Positions 31,196-62,662 are shown, counted from the first letter of the stretch. The stretch: 64,000 bases of DNA from an uncultured Acidimicrobiia bacterium (GCA_964614095.1 CAZTJO010000002.1:32043-96042); one strand, 5' to 3'. Program-made: numbers and translations. The notes: generated by a model not told the origin, from the letters alone.

Positions 31196-31309
31196 AGCGG
31201 CGAGGTTAGGGGTCCCAAGATTCCATAGTCGGGTTTGAGTGTGGAGGTTGTGCCGTTCGGCTCCTCGCGGCACGATTTCCTGCAGGATGCTGAACAGCCG
31301 TATAGACTA

Positions 31310-31325
31310 TTGAACATGAGTTCAA
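31310..31325 (+). promoter_or_regulatory. 16-bp perfect palindrome TTGAACATGAGTTCAA overlapping the tetR start codon (operator; core GAAC-N4-GTTC)
   Basis: Perfect inverted repeat centred on the ATG at 31316. A second TGAACA half-site lies 20 bp upstream (31291-31296). Confidence 0.55.
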
Positions 31326-32946: not shown

Positions 32947-34601
32947 TGCTCGCCAACGTCTACACCAAGACGATCCGGGACCGCTGGAAGGGCATGACCA
33001 TTGGTGCCGTCAGCCTGGCGACCATGCTGTTGGTCGGGATGGCCGTCTACCGCGACATCGACATGTCCATTTACACCAGCATGCCCGAGGCATTCCGGGC
33101 GCTGATGAACATCACCGCAGACACCGATGCGAGTGGCCTTGCCTACGGCGCCATCTACAGCTCCTATGGAGCGTTGACGCTGGCCGCGTTGGCCCTCTCT
33201 ATAGGCGCAGTCTCCATTGCCGGAGAGGAGCGGAACGGCACCATCGGTCTGCTGTTGGGCAATCCGCGCAGCCGTACCCATGTGCTTCTCTCGAAAGGGG
33301 CGTCCATGGTGACGCTCACGGGGTTTGGGGCCCTGGTCCTGTGGGGCGCCGGGCGCGCCGTCCCGGCGGTGTTCGACGTCGACGTAAGCGGGATGCACGT
33401 TGGTGCACTGGTCCTGCACATGTTTGTCATCTCGATCTTCTTTGGCTTTCTGGCGATGGCGATCGGCGGCTGGACCGGCAATCGAGGCTTGGCGTCGGGG
33501 TCGACCGCGGGGATACTGGTCTTCTCCTTTTTTGCAGTCGGTCTTCTGCCCTTCATCGAGGGATTGGCAGGCGCCGCCAAGGCGTTTCCCTGGTACTACT
33601 ACGACTCGAGCAAGCCCATCTCGAACGGAGTCCATTGGGGCCACCTTGGGTTGCTCCTAGGTGCCTCGGCGATCCTCGGCGCGGCGGCGGTGTATGGGAT
33701 CAATCGGCGTGATCTGAAAGAGCAGGGGGTTGCCGTCACCCTGCTCGACCGCCTGCGCAAAAACCCACGGACTCAGAAGCTGATGGAGCGGCTTGCCGGC
33801 TCGGCCCGGGTGTCACGGGTCTCGGTCAAGACCACCTCAGACCACCAGCGGCTCGTGATCATCGTCGGGTACATCGTGCTGCTGGTGGGCGTCATGATGG
33901 GGCCCTTCTATCTGCTCATCGACGACGCTCTCAAGAAATTCGCCGACCAGTTCCCTGAAGCTCTTCTCGCCATGATCGGGTACGCCGACATGGGAACCCC
34001 GGAGGGCTGGTACCAGACCGAGAACTTCAGCCTCACGCTCCCGATCGCACTCATCGTCGTCACCACGGTGATGGGGGCGCGGGCCTTGGCCGGCGAGGAA
34101 GCCGGTCGCACGATGGGGCTCCTTCTGGCCAACCCGATCAGCCGCACCTCGGTGGTTGTCGAGAAGGCGCTGGCGATGCTCACAGCCGCGGGAGCGCTTG
34201 GGGTGCTGACCTTCGCCGGCACGGCGCTGGGATCGCTGCTCGGCGGTCTCGACATGAGCATGGTCAACATCACGGCCGCGTCGCTGCTGGTCACACTGCT
34301 GGCTCTGTTGTTTGGGGCGCTCGCTCTGGCTTTCAGCGCGGCCACGGGCCGGGTGAACGTTGCCGCCTCCGCCACGGCCGGGCTGGCCCTGGCGTTTTAT
34401 GTCCTCAACTCGTTCCTGCCCCTGAACGACGGCCTGGCCGGGTATGCCAAGTGGTCACCGTTCTACTACTACCTGACCAGCGACCCGCTCAACAACGGGA
34501 TGCCCTGGGGTCACGCCGGGGTCCTCACCGCTCTTGCGGTGGGGCTGGTTGCTCTGGCGATCCTCCTCTTTCAGCGTCGTGACCTGCGGCAGGTGGGGTG
34601 A
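32946..34601 (+). CDS. ABC-2 family permease, internally duplicated (two 6-TM halves)
   Basis: 551 aa with two homologous hydrophobic halves. Overlaps the ATPase stop (start at 32946). Confidence 0.8.
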   Translation: MLANVYTKTIRDRWKGMTIGAVSLATMLLVGMAVYRDIDMSIYTSMPEAFRALMNITADTDASGLAYGAIYSSYGALTLAALALSIGAVSIAGEERNGTIGLLLGNPRSRTHVLLSKGASMVTLTGFGALVLWGAGRAVPAVFDVDVSGMHVGALVLHMFVISIFFGFLAMAIGGWTGNRGLASGSTAGILVFSFFAVGLLPFIEGLAGAAKAFPWYYYDSSKPISNGVHWGHLGLLLGASAILGAAAVYGINRRDLKEQGVAVTLLDRLRKNPRTQKLMERLAGSARVSRVSVKTTSDHQRLVIIVGYIVLLVGVMMGPFYLLIDDALKKFADQFPEALLAMIGYADMGTPEGWYQTENFSLTLPIALIVVTTVMGARALAGEEAGRTMGLLLANPISRTSVVVEKALAMLTAAGALGVLTFAGTALGSLLGGLDMSMVNITAASLLVTLLALLFGALALAFSAATGRVNVAASATAGLALAFYVLNSFLPLNDGLAGYAKWSPFYYYLTSDPLNNGMPWGHAGVLTALAVGLVALAILLFQRRDLRQVG

Positions 34602-36246: not shown

Positions 36247-39200
36247 ATGACTCGTTATGCCGAGCTGCATTGCCACACCAACTTCTCGTTTCGCGACGGG
36301 GCCTCGCACCCGCACGACCTGGTGCGGCGGGCTGCCGATCTCGGCTACGAGGCGCTGGCCGTCACCGACCACAACGGCTTCTACGGCGCCCCCAAATTCC
36401 GCACTGCGGCGCAAGAGGTGGGGCTGCCCACCGTGTATGGGGTCGAGGTGGCGCTGGACGCCCCCGAGGGCGAATCCCTCGAGCACCTCGTGCTGCTGGC
36501 ACCCGACCCGGCGGGCTACGCCGCCCTCTGCCGGCTGGTCACCCGGGCCCAATTCCGCGGCGGGAAGGAGCATCCCGTCTACGACGAGGGCGAGCTGGCC
36601 GAGGCCTCGTCCACCGGTCGCCTCGTCGCCCTCACCGGGTGCCGGCGGGGAGCGGTGCCGCAGGCCGCGCAGGACGGCGACCTCGATGCGGCGATGCGGG
36701 CCGCAGTCCGGCTGCGCGAGATTTTCCCCGGCCGTCTCTACGTGGAGCTGTGGCACCATGCCATGCCCGAGGACGATGCCCGCAACGACGTGCTCGCCGA
36801 GGTGGCCGCCCGGCTGGGCCTTCCCTTGGTGGCCACCAACAACGTGCACTATCACGACCGCTCCGAGGCCGATCTCGCCGAGGTGCTCGCCGCCATAGGG
36901 GGCCGGCGTTCCCTCGACGGCGGGCACGGGTTCTGGTCGGCGACGGACGAGCGCTACCTGAAGCCGCCCGGCCAGATGGCGCGCCGCTTTCTCCGCTATC
37001 CGGGTGCGGTGGAACGTGCCGCTGATCTGGGGGCCGCCCTCGCCTTCGACCTTTCCCTAGTGGCGCCGCGCCTCCCCGACTTCCCCATGCCCGGGGCCTT
37101 CCTCAATGAGATGGAGTACCTGCGCCACCTGACCTTTCAGGGTGCCGTCGAGGTGTACCCGGGCGACGGGCCCGGCGGCATCGATCCGCGGGCGATCACC
37201 CGCCTCGATCACGAGCTGGGGGTCATCGGAGAACTCGGCTTCCCCGGCTACTTCCTCGTGGTGTGGGACATCGTGCAGTTCGCCCGCCGCCGGGACATCT
37301 ACTGTCAGATCAGGGGCTCGGGCGGCGATTCTGTGGTGTGTCGCTGCCTCGGGCTCACCCGGGTCGATCCTCTGCGCCTTGCTCTGCCCTTCGAGCGTTT
37401 TCTCTCCGCCGAGCGAGGCCGCCCTCCCGACATCGACGTCGACTTCGAGGCAGAGCGGCGTGAGGAGGTCATCCAGTACTGCTACGAGCGCTACGGGCGG
37501 GAGCGGGCGGCGATGGTGGCCAACGTGATCACGTACCGGGCCCGCTCCGTTTTGCAGGACGTGGGCAAGGCCTTTGGGCTCACCCAGGCCCAGGTGAACG
37601 GCCTCACCAAGTACCTCGACAGCCGCAGGACAGAGGCGATTCCCGAGTTTGTCGACCTGCCGGAAGGGCTCAGCGGCGAGCTCATCCTCGACGCCTGCCG
37701 CCGCCTCGACGGTTTTCCCCGCCACCTCGGCATCCACTCGGGAGGCATGGTCATCGCCGACCGGCCCCTCTGGGAGGTGGTACCTCTGGAGTGGGGGCGC
37801 ATGGAGGACCGTTCGGTGTTGCAGTGGGACAAGGACGACTGCGCCTCCATGGGCATCGTCAAGTTCGATCTCCTGGGTCTGGGCATGCTCAACGCTCTCC
37901 ACCTCACCGTCGACCTCATCGCCGACGTGCACGGCGTCGACGTCGATCTGGCTTCGCTGCCACAGGAGCCGGTGGTCTACGAGATGCTGACCAAGGCCGA
38001 CACGGTCGGTGTTTTCCAGGTGGAGTCGCGGGCCCAGATGGCAACGCTGCCGCGTGTGAAGCCGAAGACTTTCTACGACCTCGCCATCGAGGTAGCCCTC
38101 ATCCGTCCCGGCCCCATCCAGGGGCACTCGGTGCATCCGTTCTTGCGCCGGCGCAACGGCGAGGAGCCGGTGAGTTACCCCCATCCCACTGCCGAGCCCA
38201 TCCTGTACAAGACGCTGGGCATTCCCGTTTTCCAGGAGCAGCTGATGGAGCTGGCCCGGGTGTGCGCCGGCTACAGCGCCGGGCAGTCCGATCGTCTGCG
38301 CCAGGCGATGACCCACAAACGCTCCGAGGAGGAGATGGCCAAGCTCCGGGCAGAGACTTACGTCGGCATGGCCGGCAACGGGATCACCGGCTCCGCCGCC
38401 GACGAGATCTGGGAGAAGCTCCAAGGGTTCGCCTCGTTTGGCTTTCCCGAGAGCCATTCGGTGTCGTTCGCTTACATCGTGTACATGTCGGCGTGGCTCA
38501 AGTATCACTGGCCCGCTGAACTGCTCGCCGGCCTCCTCAACGCCCAGCCCATGGGTTTTTACAGCCCGAATTCACTCGTTCAGGACGCCCGCCGGCACGG
38601 GGTTATCGTGCTGCCTCCCGACGTGAACGAGTCTTCGTGCGACTGCACGGTGGTGCCGCATCCCGCCGATCCCGAGGACACGGCCACTTACTACGGGATG
38701 ACGTGGCGGCGGGGCAGAGGGGCGCACGACGACCCCATTCGACTGGCGACGGCGGTGCGTATGGGGCTGCGCTACGTGCGCAACTTGGGCGAGGCCGAGA
38801 TTGCCCGCATCGAGGCCGCCCGGTTCCTCGGGGGGCCCTTCGCCGACATGGTCGATCTGGCGCAACGCACCGGGCTGGCGGTGAAGGGGCTTGAGGGCCT
38901 GGCCGCCTCCGGTGCCCTTTCCTCGCTGGGTGTGGAACGCCGCCGGGGCCTGTGGGCGGCCGGGGCACTGGCCGGTATGGGTCCGGGGCGGCTTGCCCTG
39001 GCCGAGGGGGTCGATGCTCCGGCGCTGGAACCGATGACCGAGGTCGAGTCGACCCAGGCCGACCTGTGGTCGACGGGGGTCTCGGTTTTTCATCCCGTCG
39101 AGTTCCTTCGCGAGTGGCTTGAGGGTCGGGGGTGTTTGTCCATCGCTTCCGCCCTCGCCGGCGGCAACGGAAAGCGGGCGGCGGTTGGAGGTGTCATCAC

Positions 39201-39465
39201 CCACCGTCAGCGCCCGATGACGGCCAAGGGGGTGATCTTCCTCAATCTCGAGGACGAGACCGGCATCCTCAATGTGATCGTGCTCCCTGAGGTGTGGCAG
39301 GCATATCGCGAGATCGCCCGGCGCGCCGTCGGGATTGTGATCGAAGGGGTGCTCGAATACCGGGACGGGGTCACCAACCTCGTTGCCTTCCGTTTCCATC
39401 CCTGGCCGCATGAGGTGAAGGGCATCCACTGCCGCAACTGGGCGTACTGGGGGCGCAGGAGCTGA
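36247..39465 (+). CDS. dnaE2: Error-prone DNA polymerase DnaE2 (ImuC)
   Basis: PHP domain start (YAELHCHTNFSFRDGASHPHDL), the polymerase III alpha core, and ~1072-aa length typical of DnaE2. A LexA box lies immediately upstream. Confidence 0.9.
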   Translation: MTRYAELHCHTNFSFRDGASHPHDLVRRAADLGYEALAVTDHNGFYGAPKFRTAAQEVGLPTVYGVEVALDAPEGESLEHLVLLAPDPAGYAALCRLVTRAQFRGGKEHPVYDEGELAEASSTGRLVALTGCRRGAVPQAAQDGDLDAAMRAAVRLREIFPGRLYVELWHHAMPEDDARNDVLAEVAARLGLPLVATNNVHYHDRSEADLAEVLAAIGGRRSLDGGHGFWSATDERYLKPPGQMARRFLRYPGAVERAADLGAALAFDLSLVAPRLPDFPMPGAFLNEMEYLRHLTFQGAVEVYPGDGPGGIDPRAITRLDHELGVIGELGFPGYFLVVWDIVQFARRRDIYCQIRGSGGDSVVCRCLGLTRVDPLRLALPFERFLSAERGRPPDIDVDFEAERREEVIQYCYERYGRERAAMVANVITYRARSVLQDVGKAFGLTQAQVNGLTKYLDSRRTEAIPEFVDLPEGLSGELILDACRRLDGFPRHLGIHSGGMVIADRPLWEVVPLEWGRMEDRSVLQWDKDDCASMGIVKFDLLGLGMLNALHLTVDLIADVHGVDVDLASLPQEPVVYEMLTKADTVGVFQVESRAQMATLPRVKPKTFYDLAIEVALIRPGPIQGHSVHPFLRRRNGEEPVSYPHPTAEPILYKTLGIPVFQEQLMELARVCAGYSAGQSDRLRQAMTHKRSEEEMAKLRAETYVGMAGNGITGSAADEIWEKLQGFASFGFPESHSVSFAYIVYMSAWLKYHWPAELLAGLLNAQPMGFYSPNSLVQDARRHGVIVLPPDVNESSCDCTVVPHPADPEDTATYYGMTWRRGRGAHDDPIRLATAVRMGLRYVRNLGEAEIARIEAARFLGGPFADMVDLAQRTGLAVKGLEGLAASGALSSLGVERRRGLWAAGALAGMGPGRLALAEGVDAPALEPMTEVESTQADLWSTGVSVFHPVEFLREWLEGRGCLSIASALAGGNGKRAAVGGVITHRQRPMTAKGVIFLNLEDETGILNVIVLPEVWQAYREIARRAVGIVIEGVLEYRDGVTNLVAFRFHPWPHEVKGIHCRNWAYWGRRS

Positions 39466-39471
39466 GGGGCC

Positions 39472-41022
39472 TCAATCGTCGAAACGAATGTCGCCCGAAG
39501 AGATGCTGATCAGGGTGTCGTTGCCGTCGTGTCCCCAGAGGACGTTGTTGCCGCTGCCGCCTTCGAGAGTGTCGTCGCCACCTCCGCCGTAGAGGAGATC
39601 GTTGCCGGCGTCGCCGTAGAGCAGATCGCCGTCGGTGCCGCCCTCGAGGATGTCGGCGCCGTCCCCGCCCCATACCGTGTCGAAGCCGGTGTCACCGTGG
39701 AGAACGTCGTCGCCCCTGCCGCCTTCGAGGGTGTCGCCTCCCGTGCCCCCGGCAATGTGGTCGTTGCCGTCACCCCCACAGACGACGTCGTCACCGCCGT
39801 GGCCCCAGATGGTGTCGCCCCCGGCGCGCCCGACGATCACGTCGTTGCCCGCTGTGCCGACGAGGAGGTCGGAACTGTAGGTGCCGGCGATGGTGGCGAT
39901 GCGGCCTCGGCACAGCAGTGCGGGCCAATCCGCTGGTGTAGTGACGGCGTTCTCGAACTGGGTCAAGTGGCCCAGACTACGTTCTCGCGAGGCCTGCAGC
40001 TCTGCCTGCCAGGCGCCGGCGCCGTGGGCGAGTGTGTAGTCGATGGGCAGCACAGTCTTGTTCACCGGTTCCACCCAGATGGGGGTGAACTGCACCTCGC
40101 TGACCGCGAACGTGCCATCGGGCTGCTCGGTGACGGTGAGGTGCACAATAACCCCGTCACCTCCGCCGGTGGGTTTGCGGATGTCGGTGAGGAAGTCGCC
40201 CATGCCGTAGACGACCAGCTTGCCGTTGATCCAGTCGATGGGTTGCACAGCGTGGGTGTGGTGGCCGACCAGCACGTCGATGTTGGGGGAGGCGAGAAGC
40301 GTTTCGGCCAGGCGATATTGGTCGTCGGTCGGTTCCACCTGATAACCCTCGCCCCAGTGCAGGCTGACGATGACAAAGGCGGCGCCCTGGTCCCGGGCCC
40401 AGGCGGCATCGGCGAGGATCGCCTCGGCATCGATCACGTTCACCGTCCACTCCGGCTCCTGCATCAGCGGAGGATTTACCTGGATCGAGTAGGCGATGTG
40501 GGCCACGGCGACGCCGTTGAGCACGTGCAGGTTGGGTAAACGCTCTTCCGGTGTGCGGGCGGTACCGGCGTGGTCGACCCCTACACGGTCCAGGACCTCG
40601 ATGGTCTCTTGGAGACCTTCCCAGTCCTCGTCCCAGGAGTGGTTGTTGGCGGTCGAGCAGGTGTCGAAGCCGGCGGCGGCGACGGCATCCGTTATGTCTC
40701 CCGGGCCGTTGAACAGGGGGAAGATCACGCCGGGGGCCTCGTAGACCAGACCGGTGTTGTCCGCCGACAGTGGGCCCTCGATGTGGCAGATGGCGAGGTC
40801 GGCCTCGCTTATCCACGGCTCGATGGCCTCGATCATCGGGGTGAAGTCGTAGCCCGCGCCGCCTGCGTTGCGGGCGGCGATATCGGCCATGCTCCGCATG
40901 ACAAGAATGTCGCCGGCGGCGGCGATGGTGAAAGAACGCGGCTCCGTTTCTGCCGCGGCTCTCGGCGCCACGCCGGCGGCCAGAGTCAACGCGGCGACGG
41001 CAACAAGCGGGCCTCTTCTCAT
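39472..41022 (-). CDS. Secreted CapA-family (PGA_cap metallophosphatase-like) protein fused to C-terminal RTX/hemolysin-type Ca-binding repeats (paralog 1)
   Basis: Sec signal (MRRGPLVAVAALTLAAGVAPRAAA). CapA/metallophosphatase motifs (GDIL..., ADLAICHIEG, NNHSWD, GHHTHAVQPIDW, VVYGMGDF). The C-terminal LLCRG...ATIAGT...DLLVGT...DVIVG block is followed by GGxGxDxhxG nonapeptide repeats. Confidence 0.75.
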   Translation of the reverse strand: MRRGPLVAVAALTLAAGVAPRAAAETEPRSFTIAAAGDILVMRSMADIAARNAGGAGYDFTPMIEAIEPWISEADLAICHIEGPLSADNTGLVYEAPGVIFPLFNGPGDITDAVAAAGFDTCSTANNHSWDEDWEGLQETIEVLDRVGVDHAGTARTPEERLPNLHVLNGVAVAHIAYSIQVNPPLMQEPEWTVNVIDAEAILADAAWARDQGAAFVIVSLHWGEGYQVEPTDDQYRLAETLLASPNIDVLVGHHTHAVQPIDWINGKLVVYGMGDFLTDIRKPTGGGDGVIVHLTVTEQPDGTFAVSEVQFTPIWVEPVNKTVLPIDYTLAHGAGAWQAELQASRERSLGHLTQFENAVTTPADWPALLCRGRIATIAGTYSSDLLVGTAGNDVIVGRAGGDTIWGHGGDDVVCGGDGNDHIAGGTGGDTLEGGRGDDVLHGDTGFDTVWGGDGADILEGGTDGDLLYGDAGNDLLYGGGGDDTLEGGSGNNVLWGHDGNDTLISISSGDIRFDD

Positions 41023-41034
41023 GACGGGTTCACG

Positions 41035-42552
41035 CTAGGGACGGTGGCCGAGCCGTGGCAACAGCGGGGTGCAGGAGACGGGGTCGGCGCCGTCGTGACA
41101 GGAGTCGTCGCCGCCGCCCGGGCGCAGGATGTCATCGGGCAGGACAGCCCACAGCGTGTCGTCACCGGCCCCTCCTTCGAGGGTGTCGTCACCGGCATCA
41201 CCCCACAGGGTGTCGTCGCCGGTGTCGCCAAGCAGGGAATCATCTCCCCGGTCTCCGTAGATGTTGTCGTTGCCGGTCCCGCCGGCGACATGATCGTTAC
41301 CGTCACCGCCGCAGATGAGGTCGATTCCGCTGTGCCCCCAGATGGTGTCGCCCCCGCCGAGCCCGACGATCACATCGTCGTAGGGAGTGCCCACGAGTAG
41401 ATCCGCGCTGTGGGTGCCGATGATGGTGGCCATCTGACCGCGGCACAGCAGCGGGGGCCAATCGGCCGGGGTGGGCTCGGCGTCGGTGAGCAGGGTGAGG
41501 CCGCTCATGGTTCGTTCCCAGGCCGTCTCGAGATCCGAATGCAGCCACTCGGAGCCGTAGGCGAGTGTGTAGGAGATCGGCAGCACCGTCTTCTGCCAGG
41601 TCTCTACCCAGGTGGGGGTGAACTGGACTTCGCTGGTGGCAAAACTTCCGTCGGGCTGCTCGGTGACGGTGAGGTGCACGATGACGCCGAACCCTCCGCC
41701 CGAGGGCCCGCGGATGTTGGAGATGAAGTCACCCATGCCGTAGACGACGAGCTTGCCGTGGATCCAGTCGATGGGCTGCACCAAATGAGTGTGATGGCCC
41801 AGCAGCACGTCAATATCGGGAGAGGCCAGCAGCGTTTCGGCCAGCGACTGCTGAGCGGGGCTTGGCTCCACCTGGTACTGGTCACCCCAATGCAGGCTGA
41901 CCACAACAAACTCGGCGCCCTGGTCTCGGGCCCAGGCGGCGTCGGCGAGGATGGCGTCGGGATCGATGACGTTGACCGACCACGACGGCCGCTGCTGGAG
42001 CCCGGCGTTCATGGAGATGGAATAGGCGATGTGGGCCACGGTGACACCGTTGAGCTCGTGGAGATTGGGGCGCGTCTCCTCCAGGTTGCGGGCGGTGCCG
42101 GCATGGGCCACCCCGGCACGATCCAGCATCACCAGCGTGTCCTCCAGGCCGCGCCAACCGTTGTCCCAGGAGTGGTTGCTGGCGGTGGAACAGGTGTCGA
42201 AGCCGGCGACGGCGATGGCTTCGGCCATCTCGCCGGGGCCGTAGAAGAATGCCGGGTGGTCGTAGCCGATCTGGTAGGAGAGGCCGACGTTGTCCACCGA
42301 CAGCGTGCCCTCGACGTGGCAGATGGCGAGGTCGGCGTCGCCGATCCACGGCTCTATCTGCTCGAACATGGGAGTGAAGTCATATCCGCTGCCGCCGGCG
42401 TTATAGCGGGCCGCGACGGCGACGGCCTCGTGGATGAGGATGTCGCCGGCGGCAGCGATGGTGAACGACCGTGGCTCCGTTCGCGCCGAGGCGCCGGGCG
42501 CAGCAGCGGTGGCGAGGACGAGGGCGGCCAGAGTGGCCTGAGTCCTTCTCAT
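41035..42552 (-). CDS. Secreted CapA-family protein with C-terminal RTX repeats (paralog 2)
   Basis: Same architecture and about 70% aa identity by eye to paralog 1. Start at ATG 42552 (MRRTQATLAALVLATAAAPGASA), analogous to paralog 1. Confidence 0.75.
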   Translation of the reverse strand: MRRTQATLAALVLATAAAPGASARTEPRSFTIAAAGDILIHEAVAVAARYNAGGSGYDFTPMFEQIEPWIGDADLAICHVEGTLSVDNVGLSYQIGYDHPAFFYGPGEMAEAIAVAGFDTCSTASNHSWDNGWRGLEDTLVMLDRAGVAHAGTARNLEETRPNLHELNGVTVAHIAYSISMNAGLQQRPSWSVNVIDPDAILADAAWARDQGAEFVVVSLHWGDQYQVEPSPAQQSLAETLLASPDIDVLLGHHTHLVQPIDWIHGKLVVYGMGDFISNIRGPSGGGFGVIVHLTVTEQPDGSFATSEVQFTPTWVETWQKTVLPISYTLAYGSEWLHSDLETAWERTMSGLTLLTDAEPTPADWPPLLCRGQMATIIGTHSADLLVGTPYDDVIVGLGGGDTIWGHSGIDLICGGDGNDHVAGGTGNDNIYGDRGDDSLLGDTGDDTLWGDAGDDTLEGGAGDDTLWAVLPDDILRPGGGDDSCHDGADPVSCTPLLPRLGHRP

Positions 42553-42594
42553 GACCGGCTCACGGTGGGGGGGCTCGCCGGGTCTGGGCAAGGC

Positions 42595-44082
42595 TCAATG
42601 GACGCAGGGCACGTCTTCGTGGTCGTCAAAGCAAGTGTTGTTGCCACCGCCGCCGACCAGTAGGTCGCTGCCGCCGCCGTGCAGGAGATCATCGTCGGAG
42701 CCGCCCTCCAAGCTGTCGGCGCCATCGTCTCCCCATAGGACATCGGCACCGGTGTCGCCGTGGAGGAAGTCGTCGCCGTCGCCTCCACTGAGGGTATCGC
42801 TGCCGGTGCCCCCGGCAACGTAGTCGTTGCCGCCGCCGCCGCAGATGAGATCATCGCCGCTATGGCCCCAGATGGTGTCGCCTCCGCCGCGCCCGACGAT
42901 CACGTCGTCACCGCTGGTGCCTATCAGCAGGTCGGGCCTTTCAGTGCCGACTATGGTGGCGGCCCGGCCCTGGCACATCACGGGGGGCCATTCCGCCGGG
43001 GTGGGCTCGGCGTCGGTGAGCATGGTGAAGCGGCTCACCGTGTGCTGCCAGGATGCCTCTAGATACGAGTGCAGCTCCTCGGGCCCGTAGGCGAGGCTGA
43101 AGGCCACAGGCAGTATGTCGTAGCCGTGCCAATTGACCCAGGTGGGGGTGAACTGGACATCGCTGGTGGCGAAGCTCCCGTCGGGCTGCTCGGTGACGGT
43201 GAGGTGCACCACCACCCCATCCTCTGTGGCGTAATAGTCGGGGCCGTACACCGGGTTCTGGTTCGAGAGATGATTGCCCATGCCGTAGACGACCAGCTTG
43301 TTGCCTATCCAGTCGATGGGCTGTATCACGTGGGCGTGATGCCCGAGAATGAGGTCGACGTCGGTCGAGGTGAGCAGGATCTCGGCGAGTGCCTGCTGCT
43401 GGGGGGTCGGGGGCGGGTTCCTCTCGGCCCCCCAGTGCAGGCTGACGATGACGAACTCAGCGCCCTGGGCTCGGGCCCAGGCGGCATCGGCGAGGATGGC
43501 GTCGGCGTCGATCACGTTGACCACACACTCGCCGAGTCGTGAGGAGCCGTTGACCCCATATGTGTAGGAGATGTGCCCCACGATGACTCCGTTGACCTCG
43601 TATTTGTTGGGCAGCCGCTCGTCTTCGCTGCAGCCGGTTCCGGTGTGAGGCATGCCCCGGGAGTCGAATACCTCGATGGCCTCCCGGATTCCACGTTCGC
43701 CGCCGTCGGTGGCGTGGTTGCTGGCGAGCGAGCAGTCGTCGTAGCCGGCGGCAGCGATGGCGTCGACTATCTCATAGGGGGCGACGTAGACATAGGGCTC
43801 GAAAGAGAGGTGGGTGTCGTCGACTGAGAGAGCGCTTTCCAGATGACAAATAGCCAGATCAGCCTCACTGATCCACGGCTCTATCGGGGTCAGCATCGGG
43901 GTGAAGTCGTAGCCGTCGCCGCCGGCGTATTGGTGGGCAAAATCGGCTACCCGGCCGTGGATGAGGATGTCCCCGGCGGCGGCGACGGTGAAGGAACGCG
44001 GGGGCTCGGCGGCGCCGGCTGCAGGGGCCGATAGCACGGCACAGACTGCGATCAGGGCCAGCGAGCTAGGCAATCGGGACAT
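42595..44082 (-). CDS. Secreted CapA-family protein with C-terminal RTX repeats (paralog 3)
   Basis: Signal peptide MSRLPSSLALIAVCAVLSAPAAGAA. CapA motifs conserved (GHHAHVIQPIDW). C-terminal Cys-containing junction plus GGxGxD repeats. Confidence 0.75.
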   Translation of the reverse strand: MSRLPSSLALIAVCAVLSAPAAGAAEPPRSFTVAAAGDILIHGRVADFAHQYAGGDGYDFTPMLTPIEPWISEADLAICHLESALSVDDTHLSFEPYVYVAPYEIVDAIAAAGYDDCSLASNHATDGGERGIREAIEVFDSRGMPHTGTGCSEDERLPNKYEVNGVIVGHISYTYGVNGSSRLGECVVNVIDADAILADAAWARAQGAEFVIVSLHWGAERNPPPTPQQQALAEILLTSTDVDLILGHHAHVIQPIDWIGNKLVVYGMGNHLSNQNPVYGPDYYATEDGVVVHLTVTEQPDGSFATSDVQFTPTWVNWHGYDILPVAFSLAYGPEELHSYLEASWQHTVSRFTMLTDAEPTPAEWPPVMCQGRAATIVGTERPDLLIGTSGDDVIVGRGGGDTIWGHSGDDLICGGGGNDYVAGGTGSDTLSGGDGDDFLHGDTGADVLWGDDGADSLEGGSDDDLLHGGGSDLLVGGGGNNTCFDDHEDVPCVH

Positions 44083-44192
44083 ATGCTGTGGCCAACGCTA
44101 CCCGCTGGCAATTCGGCCGCAAGTGGTGTTGACTTGCCCACGTAGGGTGGTTGTGCTCTATTCTTGGTCCTTCGCGACCCGATAGAGGAGAG

Positions 44193-46409
44193 ATGAGGCA
44201 CTTCCCCGCCCTCCGCAAGATTGTTGTGCTCTCGACCGCCATCGCCCTGTTCGGCGTGCTCCCGGCAACGGGCTCCGCCGCCGACGGCGCCTCTGCCGAC
44301 GGCAAGCCGCCGGGGCTGGAATCCCGGCTCTACCGTGCCCAGCTGGCCGTGACCGAGCAGGGTGCGGCGGCCGGCCATGCCCAGGCCGAGGATATGGGCC
44401 TGGAAGTGCAGGCGGGCAAGGTGGTGGTGGAGGTGTATCCCGCCGGCGATCTGGCCGCGGCCATCGACGCGGTAGAGGCCGCGGGCGGAACAGTCGCGTA
44501 TCCCGGTGACGGGCTGGGGTTTGTTGGGGCGCTGGTGCCGATGGGGACACTGATGGCGCTCTCAGAGGATGCCGCAGTGCGCTGGGTGCAGTCCCCGCCA
44601 CAACCGTTTGCCGAGGCAGTGACCGGACAGGGTGTCGCCTTCACCGATGCCGACGACTGGCATGCCGTCGGCATCACCGGCGCCGGGGTCAAGGTTGCCG
44701 TGGTCGATCTGGGCTTCACCGGATACGCCTCGGCGCAGGCGAGCGGAGATCTGCCGGCAACGCTGACCACACAGAGCTACTGCGGCGGCGGCATCGGCGG
44801 GACCACCGCGCACGGAACCGCAGTGGCCGAGATCGTGCATGAGATGGCCCCCGACGCCGAGATCTACCTCATCTGCGTAAGCAACACCGGTCATATCGAT
44901 TCCGCCCTCGACTACATGAACGCCCAGGGCGTCGACATCATCAGCCACTCGGTGGGCTGGTTCAACACCGAGCGAGGCGACGGCACCGGGCCCTTCCTCA
45001 CCCTGTCGAACAAGGCGGAGGGCTACGGCATCGCCTGGTTCAATTCGGCAGGCAACTACGCCGAGCGCCACTGGTCGGGCAACTTCAACGACAGCAACGA
45101 CGGCGACGGCACCCATGAATTCTCCGGTGCCGACGAGCGCAACACCTTCACCCTCGACAGCGGTGATCAGGTCTACGTCTCCCTCAAGTGGGACGAATGG
45201 CCCACATCGAGCAACGATTTCGATCTGTACCTGCTCGACATCACCGGCGGAGGTGGCGTGGTCGACTCGTCTACCGATCCCCAGACCGGCACCCAGCCGC
45301 CGACGGAGTTGATTACCTACACCAATCCGACCGGTGGCACCCGTACCTACGCCGTCGAGATCCGCGAGTTCTCTGCCATGACGACGCCGGACATGGACCT
45401 GTTTGTGCTCAGTCCGGACGATCTGGAGTACCCCGTCACCGCCCGCAGCCTCAACGAGAACTCGACCGTGCCCAACATCTACTCTGCCGGGGCGGTGTGG
45501 TACTTCGATGGCCTGATCGAGGATTTCTCCTCGGAGGGGCCCACCATCGACGGCCGCACCAAACCCGATATCTCGGGGCCCGACGGGGTGGCCAGTTTCA
45601 CCTACGGGTCGTTTGGCGGCACCTCGGCGTCGGCCCCGCACGTCAGCGGCGCCGCGGCCCTGCTGCTGTCGGTGTACCCGTGGATGTCGCCGGCCGAGCT
45701 GCGCGCCGCAGTTTCGAGCCGCACTCACGACGCCGGCCCGGCGGGACCGGATAACGAGTACGGCGTCGGCGTCCTCGATCTGGGCGCTCCACCCGCGGTG
45801 AGCTGCGCCGGGCAGCCGGTCACCATCGTCGGTACGGAGAACGATGACGTCCTCGTCGGCACCGACGGCAGGGATGTGATCGCAGGTCTGGGCGGCAACG
45901 ACCACATCAGTGGTTTTGATGGTGGCGATTTGATCTGCGGCGGTGCCGGCAACGACAGGATCTACGGCGGCAAGGGCAACGACACGATCTTCGGCGACAC
46001 CGGGGTCGACTTGATCTGGGGCAACCAGGGCAAAGACGTGCTCGACGGGGGCAAGGGCAACGACAAACTCATCGGAAGCATGGGACTGGACCGGATCATG
46101 GGCCGCGGTGGAAACGATGTCATCACCGGGAATGCCGGTGACGACGGCCTCCGTGGTGGTGTGGGCGACGATTACATCACCGGCGACGAGGACGACGATC
46201 ACATCTACGGCAACGGCGACGATGACACGCTCAGCGGTGGCGCGGGCAGTGACATTGTCTACGGTGGTCCGGGCAACGATCTGCTGCGCGGCAACAGCGG
46301 CAGTGACGAGCTGTACGGCGGATCCGGGACCGACGTCGACAAGGGCGGAACCGCCTACGACTACTGCACCGAGGCCGTTTCCTACAGGAGCTGCGAGGTC
46401 ATCGGGTAG
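44193..46409 (+). CDS. Secreted S8-family (subtilisin-like) serine peptidase with C-terminal RTX repeats
   Basis: Signal peptide. Catalytic triad motifs D (VAVVDLG), H (HGTAVAEIVHEMAP) and S (GTSASAPHVSGAAALLLS). The C-terminal 190 aa repeat the same junction (VSCAGQPVTIVGTENDDVLVGTDGRDVIAG) and GGxGxD nonapeptides as the CapA paralogs. Good RBS GAGGAG. Confidence 0.85.
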   Translation: MRHFPALRKIVVLSTAIALFGVLPATGSAADGASADGKPPGLESRLYRAQLAVTEQGAAAGHAQAEDMGLEVQAGKVVVEVYPAGDLAAAIDAVEAAGGTVAYPGDGLGFVGALVPMGTLMALSEDAAVRWVQSPPQPFAEAVTGQGVAFTDADDWHAVGITGAGVKVAVVDLGFTGYASAQASGDLPATLTTQSYCGGGIGGTTAHGTAVAEIVHEMAPDAEIYLICVSNTGHIDSALDYMNAQGVDIISHSVGWFNTERGDGTGPFLTLSNKAEGYGIAWFNSAGNYAERHWSGNFNDSNDGDGTHEFSGADERNTFTLDSGDQVYVSLKWDEWPTSSNDFDLYLLDITGGGGVVDSSTDPQTGTQPPTELITYTNPTGGTRTYAVEIREFSAMTTPDMDLFVLSPDDLEYPVTARSLNENSTVPNIYSAGAVWYFDGLIEDFSSEGPTIDGRTKPDISGPDGVASFTYGSFGGTSASAPHVSGAAALLLSVYPWMSPAELRAAVSSRTHDAGPAGPDNEYGVGVLDLGAPPAVSCAGQPVTIVGTENDDVLVGTDGRDVIAGLGGNDHISGFDGGDLICGGAGNDRIYGGKGNDTIFGDTGVDLIWGNQGKDVLDGGKGNDKLIGSMGLDRIMGRGGNDVITGNAGDDGLRGGVGDDYITGDEDDDHIYGNGDDDTLSGGAGSDIVYGGPGNDLLRGNSGSDELYGGSGTDVDKGGTAYDYCTEAVSYRSCEVIG

Positions 46410-46710: not shown

Positions 46711-47952
46711 TCAGCCGGACTGTTCTGCGGCCAGGTCGGCGATACGGTCGCCGATGGCGAGCGCAGCCGTGGCCGCAGGGGACGGCGCGTTGAGCACGTT
46801 GACCAGGCCGGGTTTGGCGACGAGCACAAAGTCATCGACCAGGCGTCCCCTGCCATCGACGGCCTGGGCCCGGATCCCCGACCCGGCCGCCTCGAGATCG
46901 GCGGTGCGGAGTCCGGCAATGAGGCGTCGGGCGGCCCGGGCATAGAGCGCCTTGCTGCGTGACCGGGACAGCTCGGTGAACCCAAGGCGCCAGTAGCGCA
47001 GAGCGAGGTTCCAGAAGCCGCCGAAGCGGAGCATCTCGCCGACGTCGCGCCAGCCGACACCCTCTCCCCGATAGTGATGGCGTCCCAAGGCCAGGAGAGC
47101 GCTGGGCCCGACGTCGACGTCGCCGTCGAGACGCCGGGTGAAGTGCACCCCGAGGAAGGGCAGGCCGGGCCTGGGCACCGGGTAGATGAGGTGTCTCACC
47201 TGGTGCTCCGCTTCCGGGGTGAGCCGGTAGTACTCGCCGCGGAAGGGCACGATCCGCACCGGGGGGGTTTCACCGGCGAGGAGTGCCACGCGGTCCGACT
47301 GCAGGCCGGCGCAATTGATCACCGTCTTGGCTTGGAGCCGGAGTCCGGAGGCACAGACGACCTCCCAACCCTCCGGAAGACGAGGCAGGCCGGTGACGCG
47401 CTGCCCCAGCAAAACGCGGTGGCCTGCAGCCTCCAGGTTGCGCGCCAGCCGCCGGGCTACCGCCACAAAATCGACGACTCCGGTCTCGGGGACGATGAGC
47501 CCTTCGACCCCGGAGACGTACGGCTCCCTTTCCCTCAGCTCATCGATGCCGGCCCTATGCAGGCCGCGGAGACCGTTGGCTCGGCCCCGGCGCTCCATTT
47601 CGTTGAGGAGTGTCACCTCTTCCGGGTGGGCGGCGACGACGATCTTGCCGCAGCGGCGCAGCGGAAGGCCTTCCTCCTCGCAGAAGCGAGCCATGCGGCG
47701 GGCTCCGTCCACACAGAGGAGTGCCTTCTCCGAACCGGGCCGGTAGGGGAGGCCGGAATGCAGCACACCGCTGTTGCGCCCCGTTTGGTGGGCGCCGAGG
47801 CGGTCTTCGGCCTCGAGAACCACGATCGACGCATCAGGACGGCGCCCATGCAGCGCCCGGGCAGCAGCGAGGCCGACGATTCCGGCACCGACGATTGCGA
47901 TGTCGCAGCGGTCTTCCACAGGCTGCACGATAGGCCCGATGTGAGGGGGCAT
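46711..47952 (-). CDS. lhgO: FAD-dependent L-2-hydroxyglutarate oxidase/dehydrogenase (LhgO-like)
   Basis: N-terminal dinucleotide-binding fold CDIAIVGAGIVGLAAA. ~413-aa DAO-family protein with LhgO-like organisation. Confidence 0.75.
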   Translation of the reverse strand: MPPHIGPIVQPVEDRCDIAIVGAGIVGLAAARALHGRRPDASIVVLEAEDRLGAHQTGRNSGVLHSGLPYRPGSEKALLCVDGARRMARFCEEEGLPLRRCGKIVVAAHPEEVTLLNEMERRGRANGLRGLHRAGIDELREREPYVSGVEGLIVPETGVVDFVAVARRLARNLEAAGHRVLLGQRVTGLPRLPEGWEVVCASGLRLQAKTVINCAGLQSDRVALLAGETPPVRIVPFRGEYYRLTPEAEHQVRHLIYPVPRPGLPFLGVHFTRRLDGDVDVGPSALLALGRHHYRGEGVGWRDVGEMLRFGGFWNLALRYWRLGFTELSRSRSKALYARAARRLIAGLRTADLEAAGSGIRAQAVDGRGRLVDDFVLVAKPGLVNVLNAPSPAATAALAIGDRIADLAAEQSG

Positions 47953-48014
47953 AGGATGTCGCTATGTCGCAGACGCTTGCCTAAATCGCGGTCGGGCTCG
48001 TCTTCCTGCGGGGC

Positions 48015-48338
48015 ATGGCATACGTGATCCCCACCAGACAAGTTGTGGCCGGCTTCGGCGAGATGCCAGAGGACGATCGCTGGGTTCTCATCATGGAGTG
48101 GGTGGCCGAGGAGCGCGCTATGTGGTTTGTTGCCGCGCTAGTGGCGGCCGTGGCCGCCTTCGGGAGCGATGGAGAAGCCGCCGTCGCTTTCGTGTACCGG
48201 CTCTCGGCAGGCTTCCTGGTCGTGGTGGGCGCCTGGACGGCCCTCACCGGGGCGCGCGGCCCGGTGATCTGGTTCAAGCTCTGCCCGGTGGCGCGCGGCA
48301 CCACCGCCGGTCTGCTCGTCGCCGCCAGCCTTCTATAG
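48015..48338 (+). CDS. Possible small membrane protein (107 aa)
   Basis: ORF with two hydrophobic segments, in the gap between lhgO and the lipoprotein gene. No homolog recognised and the SD is weak. Confidence 0.3.
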   Translation: MAYVIPTRQVVAGFGEMPEDDRWVLIMEWVAEERAMWFVAALVAAVAAFGSDGEAAVAFVYRLSAGFLVVVGAWTALTGARGPVIWFKLCPVARGTTAGLLVAASLL

Positions 48339-48358
48339 ACGCTGCGCCCCAGCCGGAG

Positions 48359-49883
48359 TCATGAGATATCCCGGATCATGTGGGCGTCGATCACGCCGGG
48401 GATGCCGGCAGGCGGCACAATCAGATCGGCGACGGTGCTGCCGTTGGTAGCCATGAGGTGCAGGCTTCCTTCCTCTTGACCACAGCCCATCCAGCGCCAC
48501 ACCACGAGGTTGCCGCCAAGAACACCGATCATCTGCTCGCCGTCGACGGCGCCGGTGATGGTGACGACGTTGCCTGAGTCGACCCGGCCGACCGTTGAAG
48601 CTCCGCAGTCACCCCACCACTGCACGTACGTCGAGCCACCGATCCGGAAGGCATCCGAGTATCCGAAGTCGACGATGTTCGGTGTCAATGTGGGGGCGGG
48701 GGTGACGGCGGTGGCCGCGGAGCCATCAGTGGGCACCCGCCACAGCTGGTGGTAGTACGACATCGGCTCTGCGGCGAGCACGTCCGACGGCACGCAGGCG
48801 GCGACCACCGTGGATGTGTCCCACCATCGCACCGGAATGCAGTAGTCGCCGGTGTCGGCCAGGTCCCTGATGAGATTGCCGTGATTGTCGAGGAAGTGGA
48901 GCCCGTCGCCGTCGCCGGTGACGACGGTGAGGCCGTCGAGCCCATAGAGCCAATGGGTCCACTCGCGGTAATCGGCCGCTCGGGGCCGGTCGACAAACAC
49001 CGAGAACAGCGATCCGTCGGTATGGCGGCACTCGACCCGTTCGGTGGCGGCATCGGCAACGCTGACGACGATGTCGCGCCCGGTGGGCCGGGTGAAGCTG
49101 GCGGCCCCGGTCGGCGACACTGACGGGATGGCCTCGACCAGCGCCGAGGTGCGCGCCGGCAGATCGAGGAGTCGCGTCTCCCGGTCCCAGGTGGCGGCAT
49201 CGGTCAAGGTGACCAGCACCGATTGGCCACCCGGCTTCCAGTCGTTGATGGTGAAGGGCCACTCGTCCGTCGGCCACGAGAAGACTTCGTAGGTGTCGCC
49301 GTAGGGGCTGAGCATGTACAGCACGGTCTGACCCGAGATGTCGCCACCGTACAGGGCGAGGATCCATTGCTCGTTGACGTACTCCCAGGGCAGCAGGCTC
49401 CCGCTGAGGGCATAGGGGTAGTTGGCTCCGCTGATGGGGGCCGGCGAGGCCACTGCGGCGTTGCAGGGTGCGGGGATCAGGTACCAGGAGGCCGACCATC
49501 CGGTTCCGTCTCCGAATTCGATCTCGAACCAGATGTTGCCGTTGCTGTCGGGAGCGGCAATGCCGGTCGCCGGCACGCCGGTGGCGTTGTAGGCGAGGTC
49601 TCCGATGTCGTCGTGCTCGCCGCCGGGCCCGGTGCGTACGTTGAGGACGTCGGTGGGCGCGGTGCCGCGCACGCAGTAGGACTCATTGGCCACGGCAAAG
49701 GAGCCCGGAAGGGTGGTGCTGGTGGCCGAGGGTTCGGTCGGCGTCACCTCGGCAGTGGTAGTCGTCGCTTCGGTAGGTGATGTGGTCGTCGTAGTGCTCT
49801 CGGGGGTGGTGGTGGCGGCGTTGCCGCCGCAGGCGACCACCAACAGGCACAGGACGACGAGCAGAAGGCTGGCTCGGCGCATG
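48359..49883 (-). CDS. Lipoprotein of unknown function with a Thr-rich linker
   Basis: Signal and lipobox MRRASLLLVVLCLLVVAC|GG, then a T/S/E-rich low-complexity linker and a ~450-aa globular region. Start at ATG 49883. Confidence 0.55.
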
Positions 49884-49974
49884 TTGATGTTCCTCTCTGT
49901 CGCCAGAAGCCTACCGAGCACTTCAGCGGAGGACGGTTGCCGGCAGGCAGGCGGCGAGGCATTACCGTCAAAGC

Positions 49975-50901
49975 GTGCACAGGCCCGTGAAACCACCGCG
50001 TCTGCGCCCCGGTGATCGTGTCGCCGTGGTGGCGCCGGCGGGGCCCGTCGAGGCGAGGCCGGTGGCCGCCGGCCTCGATCTGGTCCGCTCTTGGGGCCTG
50101 GAGCCGGTGGAGATGCCCCACCTCTACGACCGATCCGGTTACCTGGCCGGGAACGACGACGCTCGCCTAGCCGATCTCCAAGCCGCTCTCGACGATCCGT
50201 CTGTGGGCGGAGTGTTTGCCGCTCGAGGCGGCTACGGCGTCCAGCGGATAATCGACGATCTCGACCTGGCTTCCGCCGTTCCCAAGGTGGTCGTCGGATT
50301 CAGCGATATCACTGCTCTGCATCTCACCCTGTGGCGGCAGATGGGTCTGGTCACCTTTCACGCTCCCGGGCTCTCGTGGCACCAGGAGCGCACGGGAGAG
50401 GCTTCGGCCGAGTCGCTGCGCCGAGCCGTTATGGAAGAGGGGCCCATCGGCGATGTGCTGATGCCCGCAGGCTCAGCAGAGCCGGTGACCCTGGTCGGAG
50501 GTACTGCCGAAGGGCCGCTGCTCGGTGGGAATCTGGCGCTGGTGGCGGCGTCGGTGGGGACTCAAGACGAGCCGGATCTGGCCGGGGCAGTCGTCCTGCT
50601 GGAGGACGTGGGCGAGCCGGTGTACCGGATCGACCGGATGCTCACCCAGGTGCTTCGGGCCGGGCTGTTGGAGCAAGCCGGCGGGGTGGCCTTCGGCGAT
50701 ACCCCCCTGCCGGAGGACGGCTCCACACACGACCTCTTGGCGGTGTTGGAGGATCGTCTCGGAGGATTGCGCATCCCGGTGCTGTACGGGCTGCCCTTGG
50801 GGCACCGGCGACAGCAGCAGACCGTCCCCTTGGGGGTGCGGGCGTGCCTCGACGCAGGAGCAGGAGTCCTCTCCATCGTTGAGGCGGCGACGAGCGGCTA
50901 A
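49975..50901 (+). CDS. LD-carboxypeptidase (peptidase S66, muramoyltetrapeptide carboxypeptidase LdcA-like)
   Basis: Ser nucleophile context VVGFSDITALH; ~308 aa with two-domain S66 architecture. GTG start. Confidence 0.8.
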   Translation: MHRPVKPPRLRPGDRVAVVAPAGPVEARPVAAGLDLVRSWGLEPVEMPHLYDRSGYLAGNDDARLADLQAALDDPSVGGVFAARGGYGVQRIIDDLDLASAVPKVVVGFSDITALHLTLWRQMGLVTFHAPGLSWHQERTGEASAESLRRAVMEEGPIGDVLMPAGSAEPVTLVGGTAEGPLLGGNLALVAASVGTQDEPDLAGAVVLLEDVGEPVYRIDRMLTQVLRAGLLEQAGGVAFGDTPLPEDGSTHDLLAVLEDRLGGLRIPVLYGLPLGHRRQQQTVPLGVRACLDAGAGVLSIVEAATSG

Positions 50902-51904: not shown

Positions 51905-52387
51905 ATGCGCAGGCTAAGGAAGGCGGAGGATGCCTTCACACTCGTCGAGTTGATGGTGGTAATACTCATCATCGGAGTCTTGGTGGCCGTGGCGACGCCG
52001 GCGTATGTAGGCATTCTCAATCGGGCGCGCCATAGGGAGATGCAGGCCGACCTGCGCTCGGGCCTGATGGCGGTCGAGCTGTACTTCATGGAGAACGGCG
52101 AGTACACCGACGATCCCGTCCAGCTGCAGGCTATGGAACCCGTCGTCGCCTACTACTCGCCCGAACAGCCGGTGGGCACCGTTGCCCTGCGTCTCGGAGC
52201 GAGTCCGGAACACGACGAGATCTGCCTGTTCGGGCAGACGGTCGACGGCGAGTGGTACGCCGCATACCGGTCCGTCGACTCCGCGCCCCTTTTCGGGCAA
52301 GCGGAGCTGCAGGACTGCAGCGCCGACCTTGCCGCCGGCTGGAGCCATCAGGCCTGGGAGGCGGCTCCGAGCGTTTCGCTCATCTGA
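51905..52387 (+). CDS. Prepilin-type N-terminal cleavage/methylation domain protein (type IV pilin/pseudopilin-like)
   Basis: N-terminus MRRLRKAEDA|FTLVELMVVILIIGVLVAVATPAY is a class III signal peptide with Glu+5, although Ala rather than Gly sits at -1. 160 aa. Confidence 0.65.
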   Translation: MRRLRKAEDAFTLVELMVVILIIGVLVAVATPAYVGILNRARHREMQADLRSGLMAVELYFMENGEYTDDPVQLQAMEPVVAYYSPEQPVGTVALRLGASPEHDEICLFGQTVDGEWYAAYRSVDSAPLFGQAELQDCSADLAAGWSHQAWEAAPSVSLI

Positions 52388-55128: not shown

Positions 55129-55261
55129 GGCCCCATGATGGCGTACTTCGCCATCGGTAGGATCGATCCGGGTCCGGATCCGGCTTGCTCGAGGTGTCGT
55201 CTCAGGGTGCTGCCGTCGTTTCGACTACACCCGTGTGCCGTTATTCGCGTACTCTGTGGCC

Positions 55262-62649: not shown

Positions 62650-62662
62650 AAGTGAGGAGAAG

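Follow-up and report, generated by a model that had tools for sequence, protein, structure and literature searches.

We analyzed a 64,000-nucleotide stretch of DNA (hereafter, the window) from an uncultured Acidimicrobiia bacterium (GCA_964614095.1 CAZTJO010000002.1:32043-96042) and focused on four adjacent genes, A to D, at positions 39472 to 46409. Their products are three CapA-like enzymes and one subtilisin, each with a signal-peptide-like N-terminus and each ending in the same module of RTX (repeats in toxin) nonapeptides. A preliminary description of this DNA had proposed such a set of four secreted enzymes with a common RTX module in an actinobacterial host. The open reading frames (ORFs), the Pfam domains and a gap-free alignment of the C-termini agreed with that proposal, and the host lies within the Acidimicrobiia, where a related locus (L001) is 80% identical.

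Genes and shared RTX module

Genes A (39472..41022, 516 aa), B (41035..42552, 505 aa) and C (42595..44082, 495 aa) form a minus-strand tandem in the order C, B, A, with spacers of 42 nt (C/B) and 12 nt (B/A); each encodes a signal peptide, a CapA/MslH-like PGA_cap domain and the RTX module. Gene D (44193..46409, 738 aa) is divergent on the plus strand and encodes a signal peptide, an I9-like prodomain, a subtilase S8 domain with a beta-sandwich insert, and the RTX module. In Pfam, A, B and C matched PGA_cap (E ~1e-60), D matched Peptidase_S8 (E 2e-25), and all four matched HemolysinCabind (PF00353; E values from 1e-16 to 1e-35); for C and D the domain layout was also read from AlphaFold2 (AF2) models. 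Protein A is 100% identical to database protein P0001, and an identical-sequence look-up of protein C returned no record. The ORFs of B and D had been listed first as 41035-42591, from a TTG at 42591, and as 44151-46409. These TTG starts are probably over-extensions and the true starts are ATG 42552 and ATG 44193, because the window-identical database proteins P0004 (505 aa) and P0391 (738 aa) begin there. A search of all frames of the window showed tandem RTX double motifs in these four ORFs alone; we therefore concluded that the co-occurrence of four such genes is not due to chance.

The four C-termini aligned gap-free across the shared motif, with 30 invariant positions that include two cysteines (Cys1 and Cys2) spaced exactly 44 residues apart in A, B, C and D. 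The motif as first written is exact in B, C and D, and A departs from it at one position (G-R-A-G-G-D). When the sequences were cut into 9-mers from Cys1, the register ran unbroken to the C-terminus; Cys1 opens unit 1 (position 1) and Cys2 ends unit 5 (position 9), and every canonical unit keeps the Asp at position 6 of the repeat. The module of A (39475..39912, minus strand; Cys371 and Cys415) has 16 units and runs to the C-terminus (…SGDIRFDD). That of B (41038..41445, minus strand; Cys370/Cys414) has ~13 units and a terminal cysteine pair, Cys485/Cys494. In C (42598..42975, minus strand; Cys370/Cys414) ~12-13 units are followed by a terminal hairpin (483-491) at Cys484/Cys493, and in D (45804..46406, plus strand; Cys538/Cys582) there are 21 units and a terminal pair, Cys725/Cys734. 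The nonapeptides that follow the Cys1-Cys2 segment numbered ~10 (A), 7 (B), 6-7 (C) and 15 (D), a wider range than the 8-12 given in the preliminary description.

That description had also treated the segment between the two cysteines as a distinct junction, or cap. Because the nine-residue register is continuous from Cys1, the junction is no separate domain. It corresponds to RTX units one to five, and what sets it apart is limited to Cys1, Cys2 and a small number of residues upstream. Among Protein Data Bank (PDB) entries, junction positions 15-73 aligned with the starts of CyaA RTX blocks, where the residue at Cys2 is Leu or Phe, and none of the solved structures matched by the junction profile contained the Cys pair. 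A full HMMER scan with the 73-residue junction profile matched 217,314 cluster representatives. The best matches were giant RTX proteins, each matched 19-78 times at profile positions ~14-73. These 217,314 matches are generic RTX similarity, and beyond RTX the junction signal consists of the cysteines only. In the profile search suggested in the preliminary description, giant RTX proteins of a generic kind thus drowned out everything else. When the same profile was used in a word-indexed search, the matches were fragments of 64-130 aa only, which were uninformative on partner domains.

The repeats are otherwise those of classical RTX proteins. The beta-rolls of type I secretion system (T1SS) substrates such as CyaA, serralysin/alkaline protease and the family I.3 lipases have the same GGxGxDxUx nonapeptides, and CyaA RTX blocks have the same block-start motif, (T/N)-(I/V)-x-G-T-x3-D-x-L-x-G. 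Identity between the modules of D and A was 49-54%, and modules of unrelated taxa were 42-63% identical. We rejected recent shuffling of the module among the four genes, as the module of D is no closer to that of A than are modules of unrelated taxa.

The module is predicted to fold as a parallel right-handed beta-roll. The AF2 model of C, built from a 111-sequence alignment, had a mean predicted local distance difference test score (pLDDT) of 95.3 and a predicted template modeling score (pTM) of 0.90. In it, an alpha/beta catalytic domain leads through a linker, which makes a tight turn at C-x-G, into the roll, with a strand every nine residues over 377-476 and a terminal hairpin (483-486 plus 489-491). 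In a Foldseek comparison the roll of C superposed on CyaA RTX with a root-mean-square deviation of 1.4 A over 93 columns. The model of D (pLDDT 89.4) shows a signal helix, the I9-like prodomain, the S8 domain with its beta-sandwich insert, a roll of ~20 rungs and a terminal hairpin like that of C; roll strands had pLDDT >90 in the AF2 models. The beta-roll that the preliminary description expected was therefore predicted in both proteins that were modeled. CyaA-type RTX domains share the predicted parallel beta-roll and likewise need a C-terminal cap (PMC6891781).

Cysteine pairs and distribution of the module

The two junction cysteines, earlier placed about 45 residues apart and suspected of forming a disulfide, are conserved as a pair. 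The C+44C arrangement was present in 118 of 120 CapA-RTX homologues. Among the short fragments retrieved by the profile, both cysteines occurred in 54/59 and Cys1 alone in none, and in relatives of the S8-RTX protein the modules without Cys1 were also without Cys2 and carried only a different terminal pair. A second pair, C-x8-C, lies within the last 5-21 residues of B (SCHDGADPVSC; segment 41038-41100), C (TCFDDHEDVPC; 42598-42640) and D (YCTEAVSYRSC; 46332-46406). This terminal pair usually takes the form D-x-C-R-x7-C near the end of the protein, is predicted to sit in a beta-hairpin and occurs in about 92 of the 120 CapA-RTX homologues. Protein A and its orthologues P0002 and P0003 have no terminal pair and end in ...S-x-D-[IV]-[RL]-F-[DE]-D.

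Cysteine counts followed the same pattern. Downstream of Cys2 there were two cysteines in 92 and none in 13 of the 120 CapA-RTX homologues, and the total for the mature protein was even in 106 of the 120; among non-redundant metagenomic modules the count was even in 52/54. The mature forms of A, B, C and D have 4, 6, 8 and 6 cysteines, all of them in conserved pairs. From these sequence comparisons, Cys1 and Cys2 are a conserved pair consistent with a disulfide. Classical RTX proteins, in contrast, are essentially cysteine-free: a review singles out how conspicuously RTX proteins lack cysteines and disulfides (Baumann 2019, PMC6891781), and the 150 top-scoring RTX proteins in our scan (2,700-7,700 aa), which we counted as classical T1SS-type by size alone, had a median cysteine fraction of 0.00014, with 74 of the 150 free of cysteine.

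Two further cysteine patterns were seen. The catalytic domain of protein C and of its orthologues P0009 and P0021 has an extra pair, at residues 151 and 186 in C, that is missing from A and B. Large S8 + fn3/DUF11 proteins of the P0400 type carry another RTX terminus, with no cysteine at the start of the roll and an end of the form ...D-x-[IV]-x-C-G-x-G-x-D-x-[VA]-x-[AV]-D-x-x-D-x-[VI]-x-x-x-C-E-x-V-x-R-R, which represents a second kind of Cys-closed C-cap.

The preliminary description had noted the module on the products of the four genes. A metagenome scan with the junction alignment confirmed at least 445 stretches, and an ORF with the C+44C RTX start was found in 76 of the best 80 metagenomic loci. 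Partner domains included FG-GAP, DUF5122 and NHL propellers, SGL/lactonase, RCC1, a phytase-like domain, a Cytotoxic domain, PGA_cap and S8. At 22 metagenomic loci the module follows straight after the signal peptide, with Cys1 no further in than residue 60; many of the encoded proteins are, once mature, essentially the module and nothing else. Moreover, YkuD L,D-transpeptidases carry the whole module (Cys1...Cys2...Cys3-x7-Cys4-Glu) at the N-terminus, right after the signal peptide; such RTX-YkuD genes (L118:10315-11487, minus strand; L119:10305-11477, minus strand; L121:5809-7035, plus strand) adjoin a second YkuD gene and a CapA-RTX array. The Cys-bracketed module is thus a promiscuous domain of secreted proteins and is not private to A-D. 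Unlike T1SS-type RTX regions, it may be N-terminal or stand alone.

Two small ORFs were also noted on the opposite strand between CapA-RTX paralogues. The one at L117:7419-8183 (plus strand) encodes a signal peptide, a Cys-containing N-domain of ~120 aa and a C+44C module. The other, at L003:11625-11951 (minus strand), is RTX-only, encodes 109 aa and may be partial.

We found neither Cys-paired RTX modules nor RTX proteins from Acidimicrobiia described in the literature that we searched. To the extent of that search, what appears to be new here is a widespread and undescribed variant of the RTX beta-roll that is bracketed by cysteines and, to judge from its N-terminal context, exported by Sec.

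Export route, cargo enzymes and gene neighborhood

Signal peptides were judged by inspection, from a basic n-region, a hydrophobic core of 12-16 residues and an AxA or GxA before the mature domain. All four proteins have such N-termini, with putative cleavage between ...PRAAA and E (A), ...GASA and R (B), ...AGA and A (C), and ...GSA and A (D). The same n-h-c layout was seen in all 60 CapA-RTX homologue N-termini inspected, and signal-peptide-like N-termini were present in 55/57 N-complete metagenomic carriers; the proteins thus look Sec-exported, as the preliminary description proposed. Two other routes were considered and rejected. As for Tat export, orthologues of A and B show TRK, RTS or KRA in place of the RR, and F-L-K is absent; this lack of a conserved twin arginine led us to favor Sec over Tat. 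For lipoprotein export there is no lipobox, and Cys14 of C lies inside the hydrophobic core and is missing from orthologue P0009.

At the other end of the proteins, 2-25 residues are left after the repeats, and in B, C and D they are the Cys hairpin. Since the repeats continue almost to the C-terminus, there is no room for a T1SS signal. The gene search gave a similar answer: ABC_membrane or HlyB-type ABC, HlyD and OEP/TolC genes were absent from the window, and HlyB-type ABC, HlyD and TolC genes were absent from five related loci (L117-L121). As ABC systems the window encodes only one TOBE-type importer with its solute-binding protein, two DrrAB-like ABC-2 exporters and one more ABC ATPase (62567-63364), whose partner is cut off by the end of the window. 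The DrrAB-like exporters and this ATPase, in the segments 31235-34601, 59027-60762 and 62026-63364, are of drug-efflux type and are not protein exporters; TetR-family regulators lie at 31235-32023 and 62026-62649.

An earlier survey reported six Actinobacteria genomes that contain RTX genes but lack T1SS homologues (Linhartova 2010, PMC3034196). The survey described the same phenomenon, RTX repeats in Gram-positive Actinobacteria without HlyB/HlyD/TolC; it is silent on signal peptides, the cysteine bracket, domain partners and a gene cluster, and it left the export route open. Classical RTX proteins have a C-terminal secretion signal, whereas those described here have an N-terminal signal peptide that is predicted to be cleavable, an actinobacterial host and no T1SS genes nearby. 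Because the module occurs on other domains, alone after a signal peptide and at the N-terminus, and because the window has no HlyB/HlyD/TolC genes, a T1SS role for it is effectively excluded, in line with the doubt already expressed in the preliminary description. The best reading of the sequences is that the proteins would be exported by Sec and would then undergo Ca2+-driven folding and disulfide locking.

The cargo of the module is of two kinds. The catalytic domains of A, B and C match PGA_cap (PF09587), and the best structural match of C in Foldseek was MslH (E ~1e-13), at an identity of only ~17%; calcineurin-like nucleotidases were found more distantly. Across 111 sequences the PGA_cap metallo-site residues D38, N122, H123, H249 and H251 were invariant and H80 and H216 nearly so, and the metal-site motifs GD, NH and GHxxH were invariant in the CapA-RTX family. 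MslH is a lasso-peptide C-terminal epimerase whose discoverers proposed that CapA is also an epimerase, and the CapA family has been linked to poly-gamma-glutamate (PMC8179263). The preliminary description had called these enzymes phosphatases. Their phosphatase likeness is at the level of the fold only, to the calcineurin-like nucleotidases, and the only characterized PGA_cap relative that we found is the peptide epimerase MslH; as judged from sequence, A, B and C are CapA/MslH-type metallo-enzymes, possibly peptide epimerases rather than phosphatases. They differ in setting from both known systems: MslH acts in the cytoplasm, and CapA/PgsA is anchored in the membrane with PgsB/C as its partners, whereas A-C have a signal peptide, an extra Cys pair and a beta-roll. 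No pgsB- or pgsC-like genes were found in the window.

In D, the catalytic triad D172/H207/S478 and the oxyanion residue N288 were invariant in 66 S8 sequences. Members of its S8 subfamily (41-53% identity) bear CWB2, SLH, PASTA, dockerin, Ig-like or T9SS sorting domains at the exact position of the RTX module, and in the SLH, CWB2, PASTA and dockerin subtilases the accessory module begins at the point behind the catalytic domain where the RTX module begins in D. The slot of envelope-anchored subtilases is thus filled in D by an RTX roll, a module without a known wall ligand. LPXTG, SLH, CWB2, LysM and PASTA wall anchors were absent from A-D, in which Pfam found the catalytic domain and HemolysinCabind only.

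The arrangement of an S8-RTX gene divergent from three CapA-RTX genes recurred in L001, L003, L117 and L118/L119, with S8 identity down to 41%; the S8 gene was missing in L120 and L121. We concluded that the subtilase and three-CapA cluster is conserved in several Acidimicrobiia. In the 110 bp between C and D (44083..44192), presumed to be a shared promoter region, a TTGACT hexamer is present and a ribosome-binding site, AGGAGAG, precedes the start of D; a scan of the DNA for consensus promoters and terminators gave the same counts as shuffled sequence.

The surroundings are those of an ordinary chromosomal region (nusA, infB, truB, ribF, rpsO, pnp ... dnaE2). Peptidoglycan-related neighbors in the window are an LD-carboxypeptidase, an SH3_3 protein and a PG_binding_1 protein; elsewhere, a Mur ligase and a D-Ala-D-Ala ligase neighbor the cluster in L117, and YkuD pairs adjoin the clusters in L118 and L121. 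In the order found downstream of D (46711-50901, 55235-56497), there are a DAO-family FAD oxidoreductase, the SH3_3 protein, which is secreted and Thr/Pro-rich, the LD-carboxypeptidase (S66) and, further on, the PG_binding_1 protein; the called starts of the SH3_3 protein and LD-carboxypeptidase genes overlap divergently by 22 nt. The preliminary description envisaged a coordinated extracellular degradative system. Such a system is conjectural, and the recurrent peptidoglycan-enzyme neighbors point as much to wall remodeling; that they favor remodeling of wall peptides over general degradation is only a hint.

Several other neighbors were noted. A DnaE2-type error-prone polymerase gene (36247-39465, plus strand) ends 7 nt from the stop of gene A, and adjacency of dnaE2 and CapA-RTX was also found in L001, L117 and L120. 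A Y-family (IMS, ImuB-like) polymerase gene (10168-11613, plus strand) lies 25 kb away and is not in a cassette with dnaE2. A small protein with an N-terminal methylation motif of the type IV pilin kind is encoded at 51905-52387 (plus strand), downstream of an AsnC-family regulator, and such a regulator recurred in L117 and L120.

Possible function of the module

We propose that the module is Sec-exported, Ca2+-folded, disulfide-locked and self-contained, that it stabilizes the enzymes and, tentatively, that it retains them at the envelope; we assign this proposal a probability of roughly 65%. Each of the four proteins would be directed by a cleavable N-terminal Sec signal peptide and would cross the single membrane of the Acidimicrobiia cell unfolded. 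Outside, millimolar Ca2+ would fold the acidic GGxGxDxUx repeats into the parallel beta-roll. A first disulfide would link Cys1, immediately ahead of strand one, with Cys2, the last residue of unit 5, and so staple the linker, or N-cap, onto the roll; a second would close the C-terminal beta-hairpin cap (C-x8-C), at an edge whose capping is a requirement for RTX blocks to fold. The product would be a rigid, self-contained and very acidic Ca2+-loaded domain, unrelated to type I secretion, that stabilizes the attached enzyme and, more tentatively, holds it at the cell envelope or matrix.

Of the two roles suggested in the preliminary description, Ca-dependent folding fits the predicted beta-roll, and cell-surface retention has indirect indications only, the S8 slot and the L,D-transpeptidase fusions. 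Retention is plausible by analogy, because members of the S8 subfamily bear CWB2, SLH, PASTA or dockerin domains in the RTX slot and because wall-acting L,D-transpeptidases bear the module. The existence of proteins that consist of a signal peptide and the module only indicates that the module has a function of its own. Several points weigh against our proposal. Ig-like domains fill the same S8 slot, which may thus serve accessory domains in general and not anchors in particular. The terminal Cys cap is dispensable, judging by the sequences of A and its orthologues, from which it is absent. In an ideal beta-roll Cys1 and Cys2 would not be obviously adjacent unless the pre-strand linker crosses the outer face of the sheet. 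Some carriers look like diderms, so the module is not specific to monoderms. Lastly, the genome was examined over 64 kb, and a distant T1SS-like ABC exporter may exist.

This last point belongs to the reading that the RTX region acts in type I secretion, as a signal or a ratchet, with export by an ABC transporter such as the HlyB-like pump without TolC that was proposed for Streptococcus sanguinis. RTX repeats are the hallmark of T1SS substrates, the best partial NCBIfam matches of the proteins are RTX toxins and serralysins, and one Firmicute does have an HlyB/HlyD operon beside an RTX gene (PMC3034196). Nevertheless we regard this reading as close to refuted and its residual likelihood as very small: every inspected homologue N-terminus resembles a signal peptide, the repeats lack a non-repeat tail of 30-60 residues behind them, conserved Cys pairs are atypical of T1SS substrates, the module may be N-terminal or stand-alone, and ABC_membrane, HlyD and OEP genes are missing from the window and from the five related loci alike. 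More difficult to set aside, though still unlikely in our judgment, is the idea that the roll is purely an intramolecular chaperone or stabilizer, giving Ca2+-gated folding and rigidity to enzymes that diffuse freely with no envelope association. The pTM of full-length C suggests a roll packed rigidly on the catalytic domain, the structures of serralysin and the family I.3 lipases provide precedents, and the Ig-like domains of S8 homologues are spacers in the same slot. Against a purely stabilizing role are the 22 metagenomic proteins in which the module comes straight after the signal peptide, many of them with essentially nothing else, which implies a function of its own, its fusion to L,D-transpeptidases, which must stay in the wall, and its replacement by the wall-binding CWB2, SLH and PASTA domains in the S8 subfamily.

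The roll could also bind an anionic polymer substrate (poly-gamma-glutamate, teichoic-type polymers or peptidoglycan), like the alginate-binding R-modules of AlgE mannuronan epimerases. AlgE6 R-modules were among the PDB sequence matches, the tie of the CapA family to poly-gamma-glutamate (PMC8179263) would suit CapA/MslH-like cargo, and peptidoglycan enzymes are neighbors. We consider this improbable, as one specific substrate is hard to reconcile with a module that is found on domains as different as beta-propellers, lactonase-like, phytase-like and toxin domains. Sec export followed by Ca2+-driven folding, with disulfides locking the roll, is the account that we prefer over these alternatives.

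A bolder version of this account is speculative, and we think it rather unlikely as a whole. It would make the module an undescribed autonomous envelope-tethering domain family that can sit at either end of a protein or alone. In Acidimicrobiia it would mark a conserved system for the remodeling of wall peptides that contain D-amino acids, or of gamma-glutamyl polymers, by extracellular peptide epimerases of the MslH/CapA type and a subtilase, encoded beside L,D-transpeptidases and an LD-carboxypeptidase.

RTX repeats are routinely annotated as marks of T1SS substrates or toxin-like proteins. The large RTX class seen here is marked by the reverse: a signal peptide at the N-terminus, cysteines in pairs and no fixed place within the protein. 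Recognizing this class would correct annotation, and a natural disulfide-capped beta-roll may offer a scaffold to protein engineers. The class also raises the question of what use is made of Ca2+-driven folding after Sec export, and it flags the secreted CapA/MslH-like enzymes of the Acidimicrobiia as part of a conserved cluster beside peptidoglycan enzymes.

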